Below, in pieces: positions 3,001 through 5,059 of a DNA stretch of 5,059 nt. Made by a program: the position numbers. The first letter of the stretch is position 1, and every line of letters starts with the position of its first letter. The stretch is from a virus (lineage: Duplodnaviria; Heunggongvirae; Uroviricota; Caudoviricetes), in the IMG/VR virus record IMGVR_UViG_2681813313_000012, positions 1 to 5,059 of that record. One strand, written 5' to 3'.

Positions 3001-5059
3001 TGGCTTTCCAGATATTGACTTACTATAGAATGGCTTATATCGACAATTTTAACTTTGCCATAATGCATAAGGAAAAGCTCCCTGATGCATTTGGTGGCCA
3101 GAACGACTGAGCCGGGCTTAAGTGACAATGTATCCTTTTCAAGAAAAATATTAATTGGGGAACAAACCATGATAACTGAACAGATAGCAGTCATTATAAT
3201 TTTACTTTAATTAGCAATCGGTTAGCTTAATTATAGCCCCAAAAAGTAAATTCTCATCAACACATAAGCAAATGACTGACAGGTGCCGCTAACACCCACC
3301 AGCCGCCCATTTACCACAAATAAAAAACCTTCAGGACTGAAGGACTCTGTAACAACCAAACTGATAGTCTGCCAGACCCGCCATAACCAGCTGGGTCAGT
3401 ATTAACTGGCAGCGTTCGCGTGAAAGGTACATATTCTGCGCAATCTCCCCGACTGTCGCCGGTTCGGTGACGCTTAACTCATTAAACACCACTCTGGCGG
3501 TTTCGGTCATATCCTGCTGTTTTAGCATGTCTTTTTCCCTTTTCTGGTTAACGTAACATACCAATAACTCTTGTCGAAAAAGCCAGCAAGTTGAAAGACC
3601 GGTATTCGCAACCACCAGCGCGTTTAATGTTCTGTACCGCTTTTCGGGCACAATAAATATCCTCCGGCATAGCCGGAGGTTTTTCAAATGCGCCTATAAG
3701 GCTCTCTTACCAGCCGCGCCCTAACAGGCGCACACGATCTGACATTTGCATCCAACTTCGTTACTTACGGCCCGTAAACGGGCTGCCCGGATAGGGAATC
3801 GATAACTGCTCTCCCATTTTATCCTCTTCAAGCTGGTGCTTTATGTAATCCTGTATCTTCGCCGTGTTCTTACCCACCGTATCGACGTAATACCCTCTGC
3901 ACCAGAACTCCCTGTTCCTGTACTTGAATTTCAAATCACCAAACTGCTCGTAAAGCATCAGACTGCTTTTCCCTTTCAGATATCCCATAAAGCCGGATAC
4001 GCTCATTTTGGGCGGGATCTCCACAAGCATATGGATATGATCTGCACAGCATTCAGCTTCCAGAATCCGTACACTTTTCCACTCACACAGCTTTCTCAAA
4101 ATACAGCCTATTGCTCTACGCTTCTCTCTGTAGAACACCTGTCTTCGGTATTTTGGCGCAAATACTATGTGATATTTACAGTTCCATCGGGTGTGCGCTA
4201 AGCTCTTTTCGTTCCCCATTGGGACCCCCTTTTGATTTCTTGTTTGACACTTGCAGTTGCCAGACCGCAAGGTGTTTTAACAAATCAAAAGGGGTTTTAA
4301 TAACTGGCTCAAAGCTGAAAGCTTTCCGGAACCCCCAGCCTAGCTGGGGGTTTTCTGTGCACAAAAAAACCCGCTCATCGGCGGGTTTAAGCTGTGCGGC
4401 GTAGTAACCACTCTTAACAGTATATTCAACTTTTTACGATCGTAAAGCGTTCGGGGGAAATTTTTAAAGCCGCATCAACCGCTCCACCAGTTGCTCTTTA
4501 CGGGCAACGATCCACCCGTGTTGCTCCAGATAAAATTTAAACCGTTCCAGAGTGCATACCATCGCATCGGCGGGCACCTTTTCCGTGAACTCAACCTGAC
4601 CATGTTTATCGAAGTGGATCAGTAATGCGCATCCATCATTTTCGATAGATGTGTTTTGTGCCGCTGGTGGTTGTTTTTGGTTGAAATAACAGTCTTCCAG
4701 TTTTTCGAATACTTCCCACGCCTGATCGGTTTCGAGCATTTTGGCGTGACGGGCTGCTCCGCGTTCTGTCCAGAGTATGAGCTTTCGGACATTTGGGGCG
4801 ATCGTTTGAAAATCCCTTAAAGAGATTTTCAAATTTTGGAGGTCTGCGCCTTTCGCAATTATGTAGTGCTTCCCTTCTGCAAATCGCTCTTTATTACGGT
4901 GGTGATTTCTATGAATACACTCGACGCTACAGCCATATAGTTTGGCCAGTAACTCTGTAGTGAACCGCCCCGGAAATCCTGGAGACTAAACTCCCTGAGA
5001 AAGAGGTAAACAGGATGACTAAAAATACTCGTTTTTCCCCCGAAGTCCGTCAGCGGGCG

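Follow-up and report, generated by a model that had tools for sequence, protein, structure and literature searches.

The Com protein of phage Mu controls the translation of mom, a harmful gene, as an activator, and homologues of Com precede non-specific N6-methyladenine (m6A) methylases in Mu-like prophages (PMC3299994). The methylases M.EcoGI and M.EcoGII are not expressed in the lysogen, and their constitutive expression is deleterious; an enzyme very similar to M.EcoGII is carried by phage 1720a-02 (PMC5778455). Prophages also carry a described pair of AraC regulators, PsrA (z1789) and PsrB (z2104) (PMC10877973). The locus compared here with these systems lies in IMG/VR virus record IMGVR_UViG_2681813313_000012 (Caudoviricetes), of which positions 1 to 5,059 were analysed; this stretch of 5,059 nucleotides (nt) is referred to as the window. 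The subject is an open reading frame (ORF) of 65 amino acids (aa) on the minus strand, which encodes a winged-helix protein and is followed in the window by an AraC-family gene. In related loci the gene that usually follows is an M.EcoGII-family methylase. From sequence comparison and the analogy with Com, we give about an even chance to the reading that the winged-helix protein regulates the methylase cassette, has been orphaned in the window, and is not a partner of the AraC gene.

The winged-helix gene and its methylase neighbour

The features of the winged-helix gene and its flanks in the window are listed below.

3331 to 3528, minus strand: coding sequence of the 65-aa winged-helix protein including the stop codon (ATG 3528 to 3526, TGA 3333 to 3331; PHROG 331; NCBI WP_000917753.1)
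3536 to 3541, minus strand: Shine-Dalgarno-like AAGGGA, with 8 nt from GGG to ATG, read from the sequence
3565 to 3589, minus strand: bipartite element TTGCTG-N12-AGAGTTA, in the window 36 nt 5' of the ATG
3318 to 3343, minus strand: hairpin CCTTCA-GTCC-TGAAGG and U-run (terminator T1), with the stop codon inside the hairpin
3264 to 3310, minus strand: surviving 5' domain of the leader RNA, a long hairpin AUGGGC...GCUUAU with P2 (3304 to 3274); the motif remnant spans 3264 to 3319

A methylase gene is located 134 to 154 nt past the winged-helix stop codon in 29 of 31 loci taken from one genome per species, and the Q genes upstream of these loci belong to at least three unrelated families. The same arrangement, with a spacing of about 150 nt, was seen in all seven phage records inspected (phiP27, SfV, phiNP, mEp460, Hafnia phage yong2 and Stx2a/Stx2c phages), where the methylase of about 350 aa is followed by tRNAs, stx or lysis genes. 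The IMG/VR survey was composed of the 80 loci closest to the window protein, out of more than 580 per query; the methylase follows in 58 of them and the AraC gene in 5, with 13 deletion variants and 4 loci that end at a contig edge. The methylase is a member of the M.EcoGII family of non-specific adenine DNA methyltransferases, and phage 1720a-02 is the best phage match for the winged-helix gene. When 82 diverse methylase loci were inspected, a PHROG-331-like gene was found upstream in 40.

The two genes are separated by a structured leader RNA of about 140 nt, directly upstream of the methylase, which contains a three-way junction (P1-P2-P3) and a further hairpin (P4). The intergenic leader region is more conserved than the coding region. 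A covariance model was built with the four helices P1, P2, P3 and P4. Compensatory changes are present at 14 of 31 pairs in the lambdoid set (38 distinct sequences) with 89% of the cells paired, values that no shuffle reached, and at 28 of 31 pairs in the diverse IMG/VR set (36 distinct sequences) with 87% of the cells paired, against 66% in shuffles and 30 to 38% in slid alignments; the alignments were fitted to the model and the pairing values are thus somewhat inflated. The model matches 46 of the 82 diverse methylase loci. Copies of the motif appear at L003:3711-3854, L004:3708-3850, L013:5206-5348, L123:1369-1506, L124:1315-1456 and L122:1198-1334. At E ≤ 1, the Rfam search returned no family for the leader RNA, the matches being to tRNAs, STnc100 and STnc490.

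The association reaches distant phages. The gp51 protein of N15 is a PHROG 331 member (E 5.7e-28), and the covariance model finds the RNA motif just 5' of the methylase in N15, Vibrio phage VHML and Aeromonas phage phiARM81ld, at E values of 1e-9 to 7e-8. Two alternative pairings were identified in the leader, one of AUGGGC with a nearer GCUCAU and the other of GGUCA with UGAUC directly 5' of the methylase AUG (91% paired). Because these alternative pairings fit the sequences, the motif looks like a switchable leader. In the window the model scores 29.8 bits against 95 to 166 bits for complete copies, and only the 5' hairpin survives.

A gene for a zinc-ribbon protein like Mu Com (PF10122) occupies the winged-helix slot in 8 of the 82 diverse methylase loci. 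PF10122 is the sole Pfam match in 6 of the 7 Com-like ORFs tested, 4 of which score above the gathering cut-off. These ORFs abut or overlap the methylase start (L122:1329-1544, L128, L136, L139, L149, L151, L152 and L196). The winged-helix gene and the Com-like gene are found together in none of the 82 loci (Fisher p = 0.003, uncorrected for phylogeny). Fixed synteny, persistence in N15-like phages and the slot shared with Com-like genes tie the winged-helix protein to the methylase, and not to Q, the tRNAs or the AraC gene.

The proposed mechanism is as follows. In many lambdoid prophages and phages of Enterobacterales, the winged-helix gene comes first after the late terminator of the Q-dependent late region. 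With its terminal hairpin and U-run it is the 5' part of a three-part cassette, and the leader of about 140 nt and the M.EcoGII-family methylase are the other two parts. The protein may gate the harmful methylase so that the enzyme appears in lytic growth only, as Com does for mom and the other non-specific methylases of Mu-like phages. The protein could act through nucleic acid (the leader RNA or a DNA operator) or bind the enzyme itself. The leader and the Com analogy suggest an RNA target; the shared slot and the leader helix near the start codon would be in keeping with Com-like binding of the leader mRNA and activation of translation.

The M.EcoGII-type hypermethylase is in wide use as a laboratory tool, and the winged-helix gene constantly accompanies it on its upstream side. 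Silence of M.EcoGII-type enzymes in lysogens and their harm to the host had been noted before and not explained. The companion gene, the leader RNA and the exclusion of Com-like genes provide a testable model of how phages may keep the methylase off until lysis.

Reading frame, fold and family

The protein encoded by the 65-aa ORF is MLKQQDMTETARVVFNELSVTEPATVGEIAQNMYLSRERCQLILTQLVMAGLADYQFGCYRVLQS. A longer frame in the ORF list (118 aa, from TTG at 3687) was rejected after alignment of 40 homologous loci, in which conservation begins exactly at ATG 3528 and non-triplet indels occur upstream of it. The purine block equivalent to AAGGGA is kept across these 40 loci, which bears out the good Shine-Dalgarno sequence of the preliminary description. 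The conservation of the reading frame for which the same description had called was found as well. Between the window and SfV the proportion of synonymous differences (pS) is 0.47 and that of nonsynonymous differences (pN) is 0.053; for the Salmonella copy the values are 0.80 and 0.10. These values are those of purifying selection on the 65-aa frame. The residues of helix 3 are invariant, yet 2 to 6 different codons are used for them, and the constraint is therefore on the protein and not on the DNA.

The hairpin that ends the gene, CCTTCAGTCCTGAAGG (3343 to 3328), is followed by TTTTTTATTT; it contains G+C pairs and the U-run is immediate. The dedicated terminator claimed earlier is therefore present, in a form predicted to be weak to moderate because the stem is short (6 base pairs (bp), 3 of them G-C). 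Outside the Proteus/Providencia branch, every locus has a hairpin around the stop codon, and its stem shows compensatory changes (CCTTCA/TGAAGG, GCCTCCA/TGGGGGC, GCTGCCA/TGGCAGT, CCTCCGC/GCGGAGG and others), with a good U-run in the E. coli type only. The stop codon of the winged-helix gene lies within the 3' arm of T1, and a terminating ribosome would therefore occlude this first hairpin. From this arrangement we infer that termination at T1 could depend on translation of the winged-helix gene, as could the folding of the adjacent leader in Proteus-type loci.

The element TTGCTG-N12-AGAGTTA, with a fixed spacer of 12 nt, is located 29 to 45 nt before the ATG in 119 of 126 loci with the winged-helix gene or cassette. 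It was absent from N15, VHML, phiARM81ld and phiO18P. The element is asymmetric, with no palindrome and no direct repeat. It could hold a -35 hexamer and the TA of a -10 hexamer, without the -7 T. Assignments as a sigma-70, extended -10, sigma-54, sigma-E or sigma-32 promoter were tried by eye and by scan and none was convincing; the consensus scan of the window returned no sigma-70-like site upstream of the winged-helix gene.

The helix-turn-helix-like core noted earlier is confirmed by structure prediction, which gave a confident winged helix-turn-helix model (predicted local distance difference test, pLDDT, 88) with the topology H1-beta1-H2-H3-beta2-wing-beta3 and a compact three-helix core. 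The N-terminal tail MLKQQDMTE is conserved and is modelled with lower confidence. The family is a mosaic in which this N-terminus and helix 3 (RCQLILTQLVMAGL; RCQLILTQLV) are invariant. Two alternative middle segments and two alternative wings are found between and after the invariant parts, and chimeras occur. The structural neighbours are DNA binders of the MarR, IclR and ArsR types, and also include ScpB and the activation domain of T4 MotA.

The ORF had been described as an orphan that could not be placed in a family, which does not hold. Residues 1 to 64 match PHROG 331, a populous phage family of unknown function, with an E value of 1.2e-35 (122.5 bits), and complete E. coli genomes carry the gene at 4865 places (2285 of 5426 genomes, 42%), with up to 8 places per genome. 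It is also present in 55 phage records, including phiP27, SfV, mEp460, phiNP and many Stx2a/Stx2c phages. The genera that carry it range from Escherichia, Salmonella and Klebsiella to Proteus, Providencia, Mangrovibacter and Plesiomonas (Enterobacterales). By itself the winged-helix gene is ordinary, a common and already catalogued phage gene whose product is of unknown function.

The protein is matched by 332 clusters at 90% identity, whose lengths mostly fall between 63 and 67 aa. An exhaustive HMMER search of 1.84 billion proteins returned only 96 representatives at E ≤ 0.001 and reached no other families; the family is narrow and without detectable sequence relatives. PGAP names the alleles "hypothetical protein" or "TrmB family transcriptional regulator". 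The Pfam TrmB match (PF01978) is below the gathering cut-off (18.3 against 25.6 bits, E 0.0021). TrmB proteins are multi-domain regulators with a C-terminal effector-binding domain. The NCBIfam matches were weak, to Lrs14/Sta1 only and far under their cut-offs, and a weak Pfam match to PBP2 was also obtained. The single-protein sequence search against solved structures gave no match at E ≤ 10, and PADLOC assigned neither the winged-helix protein nor the AraC protein to a defence system. The net charge across the family is -5 to +4 with a median of -1; the window protein has a charge of -2 and an isoelectric point (pI) of 4.8.

The Z-alpha domain (ADAR1, PKZ, E3L, ZBP1), a match in structure, was considered and rejected. 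In the ADAR1 structures, Z-alpha makes its contacts through an Asn and a Tyr of helix 3 and a Pro-Pro-x-Trp in the wing. The window protein has Q41 and T45 at the contact positions and the wing DYQFGCYRVL without PPxW, and the identity is 14%.

The AraC gene and the surrounding late region

A PsrA/PsrB-like AraC gene stands in the window in place of the methylase and of the 3' two-thirds of the leader. The features of this slot and of its 3' boundary are listed below.

2481 to 3194, minus strand: AraC-family gene, 237 aa, YdeO/GadX-like, PHROG 1450, PsrA/PsrB-like; cargo in the methylase slot
3230 to 3257, minus strand: promoter-like site of the AraC cassette, ATGAGA-16-TATAAT (10 of 12), 3' of the homology break
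2205 to 2454, minus strand: three tRNA genes of the ileZ-argN-argO type, Ile2 (CAU; Met per ARAGORN), Arg-UCG and Arg-UCU
1938 to 2128, minus strand: STnc100 small RNA (sRNA), full-length match at 138 bits, between the tRNA genes and a NanS-p-like SASA esterase gene

DNA alignment shows that the window shares the winged-helix gene and the first and second hairpins with the methylase loci and diverges at about 3265. The AraC cassette ends just before tRNA-Ile, and the tRNA genes form the 3' boundary of the swapped slot. Because the homology breaks at about 3265 and the AraC gene has its own promoter-like site at 3257 to 3230, the gene appears to be cargo that took the place of the methylase. 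After this exchange, which also removed most of the leader, and the insertion of an IS200 element upstream, the winged-helix gene would have been left intact and orphaned.

The AraC-like gene is found at 1324 places in 726 E. coli genomes. Compared with the 4865 places of the winged-helix gene, it follows at most about one-quarter of the copies. The co-occurrence with the AraC gene that the preliminary description had proposed to check thus proved to be a minority arrangement, at most 1324 of the 4865 E. coli places and 5 of the 80 closest IMG/VR loci; the usual neighbour is the methylase. O157:H7 genomes contain two AraC-gene copies of about 92% identity in the same slot (for example L041:5072-5785), which fit the published pair and are probably psrA and psrB. 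Placement of psrA and psrB in the methylase slot was not found described in the literature searched, which did not include the PatE and PsrB papers. The presence of PsrA/PsrB-type regulators of virulence and acid resistance from prophages of enterohaemorrhagic E. coli in the methylase slot explains their position between Q and the tRNA genes.

All nine AraC-context copies of the winged-helix gene examined are full length, with pN/pS of 0.14 to 0.59, and the gene is therefore not visibly decaying. An intact gene without a methylase may have a function of its own, or decay may not have had enough time to set in. Since a single E. coli genome may carry several cassettes, at up to 8 places, action of the winged-helix protein in trans is possible.

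The window forms the leader of the late region in a lambdoid prophage. The gene order in the annotated genome is Q, winged-helix gene, cargo, tRNAs, esterase and lysis genes, with holin, endolysin and terminase downstream. In strain NCTC9112 the same module lies directly after Q, 212 bp past the Q stop codon, without the ORF6N gene and without IS200; the window also holds the end of an ORF6N/anti-repressor-like gene. The remaining features of the window are listed below.

4419 to 4446, minus strand: late-promoter-like site TTTACG-16-TATACT, a 9-of-12 consensus match and pR' candidate
4360 to 4388, minus strand: strong intrinsic terminator AAACCCGCCGATGAGCGGGTTTTTTT, tR'-like, the 5' boundary of the cassette
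about 3651 to 4359 (ends approximate), minus strand: IS200C insertion, with tnpA at 3761 to 4219 and the STnc490/art200 5' untranslated region at 4229 to 4352
3296 to 3303, minus strand: Chi octamer GCTGGTGG, within the invariant 5' arm of hairpin P2
3612 to 3619, minus strand: second Chi octamer, upstream of the winged-helix gene and oriented like the first
4663 to 4670, plus strand: third Chi octamer

The candidate pR' site is so assigned, provisionally, from the consensus match and from the likeness of the downstream sequence to loci with the same Q family. An equivalent terminator is present upstream of the winged-helix gene in all loci, whatever the Q family. The pR'-like site and the strong terminator lie within about 50 nt of each other and would give a very short pR'-tR' RNA, in a position analogous to the StxS sRNA of Shiga toxin (Stx) phages, which is 258 nt there. 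IS200C sits exactly after the U-run of the tR'-like terminator and parts that terminator from the winged-helix gene. STnc100 is also located after stx2 in phage Stx2a_1447.

Three Chi sites are present in the window against 0.15 expected, and two of them flank the winged-helix gene, oriented with late transcription. Chi directly 3' of the winged-helix gene persists in loci without the P2 hairpin, and was also seen at L179:1128-1200. In one class of deletion variants (L053, L062, L069, L102 and L121) the methylase and the tRNAs are absent, and the STnc100 region comes straight after the winged-helix gene. The breakpoint of these variants is inside hairpin P2, just past Chi and about 20 to 25 nt after the hairpin and U-run of the gene, so that the junctions fall right at Chi.

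Competing explanations and known systems

Several observations weigh against a regulator of the methylase cassette. The winged-helix gene is present without a detectable full RNA motif at 15 loci, and the RNA motif is present with neither a winged-helix nor a Com-like gene at 17. The methylase family is found in 100 phage records and the winged-helix gene in only 55. Where the methylase has been replaced or deleted, the winged-helix gene is still intact, with the pN/pS range given above. The p value for the exclusion of Com-like genes takes no account of phylogeny. The near-neutral to acidic charge is unusual for a nucleic-acid binder of 65 aa, and no conserved DNA palindrome that could serve as an operator was found in the lambdoid-type loci besides the RNA hairpins. 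A more specific proposal is offered only tentatively. The winged-helix protein, the covarying leader of about 140 nt and the methylase may constitute an undescribed cassette of temperate phages (lambdoid, N15-like, Vibrio and Aeromonas). The protein would be a non-homologous replacement of Com that binds the leader and brings about late translation of the hypermethylase, and the leader a new class of cis-regulatory RNA absent from Rfam.

The alternative that survives best is a classical DNA-binding winged-helix dimer, which would control a late-region promoter or its own expression independently of the leader, in the manner of a C protein or a late activator or repressor. The fold is that of MarR/IclR/ArsR-type DNA binders, the PGAP name is that of a transcriptional regulator, and the invariant helix 3 is accompanied by the invariant TTGCTG-N12-AGAGTTA. 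In N15-type phages a perfect 20-bp palindrome, CGTGCGACCA / TGGTCGCACG (CGTGCGACCATGGTCGCACG), lies 4 nt past the gp51 stop codon; its centre falls about 64 bp before the annotated start of the late promoter, where an operator would typically be located (candidate operator at L123:1237-1256; also in L153, two copies, and L168). The fold, the bipartite element and this palindrome suggest a DNA target. Helix 3 differs, however, between the N15 type and the lambdoid type, and the palindrome is therefore not transferable to the latter, where the upstream element is neither a palindrome nor a direct repeat. With the charge of the family also unfavourable, this alternative is possible and clearly less probable than a regulator of the methylase cassette.

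The protein could instead be a protein-binding module without nucleic-acid binding, which might inhibit or chaperone the methylase or act on a host protein, for example RNA polymerase or RecBCD. The acidic or neutral charge of many members, the structural resemblance to the protein-binding ScpB and T4 MotA activation domain, the weak PBP2 match, the persistent adjacency of Chi sites and the conserved MLKQQDMTE tail with its lower model confidence are consistent with such a module. The slot shared with Com-like RNA-binding regulators points instead to control of expression, and we regard the module as unlikely.

A decaying, functionless remnant stranded by the cargo swap and by IS200 is more improbable still. 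The methylase and most of the leader are gone from the window, IS200 lies between the late terminator and the winged-helix gene, and pN/pS of the AraC-context copies somewhat exceeds that of the family as a whole; yet all nine copies are full length with pN/pS below 1, and a protein from one of several cassettes in a genome could act in trans.

The role of partner, co-regulator or anti-activator of the adjacent Psr-like AraC regulator, put forward in the preliminary description, is highly improbable. In its favour, 726 E. coli genomes, O157:H7 among them, have the two genes side by side on one strand, and the winged-helix gene stays intact in this context. Against it, the pairing is a derived minority and the neighbour conserved across genera is the methylase; the AraC cassette begins past the homology break and has a promoter-like site of its own; between the two genes lie a terminator and a stable hairpin; the winged-helix gene persists where the slot is simply deleted; and no analysis run here gave a sign in support.

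A regulator of the methylase cassette was compared with four groups of known systems. The AraC gene of the window is cargo of the kind known from lambdoid late-region morons and from PsrA, PsrB and PatE; the winged-helix gene lies outside that moron, in an older, displaced cassette. In contrast to the TrmB, MarR and IclR factors, the winged-helix protein is a bare single domain of 65 aa without an effector-binding or dimerisation domain, and the charge of its family is near neutral to acidic.

The C proteins of restriction-modification systems are Xre-type five-helix helix-turn-helix dimers; they bind to palindromic C-boxes, and their main task is the timing of the endonuclease. The cassette resembles these systems in that a small helix-turn-helix regulator gene lies upstream of an enzyme that acts on nucleic acid and whose timing is critical. 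It differs in the winged-helix fold, which gives no HTH_3-type Pfam match, in the lambdoid type, which has no C-box-like palindrome, and in the methylase, which is solitary.

The comparison with Mu com-mom and with the pairs of Com and an m6A methylase (FluMu Hin1523, Hia5, Nma1821 and B3 ORF47/48) is the one from which the proposed role is drawn. In each, a very small regulator gene lies immediately upstream of a late, host-harmful DNA-modification gene of broad specificity. As in com-mom, the leader is structured and one helix is able to pair just before the start codon of the enzyme. The winged-helix protein differs from Com in that it is not a four-cysteine zinc ribbon, has no PF10122 match and contains two cysteines only (C40 and C59). 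Its gene is separated from the enzyme gene by about 150 nt and a hairpin with a U-run, whereas the com gene overlaps the enzyme gene. The phages with com-mom are transposable, whereas those with the winged-helix cassette are lambdoid or N15-like.

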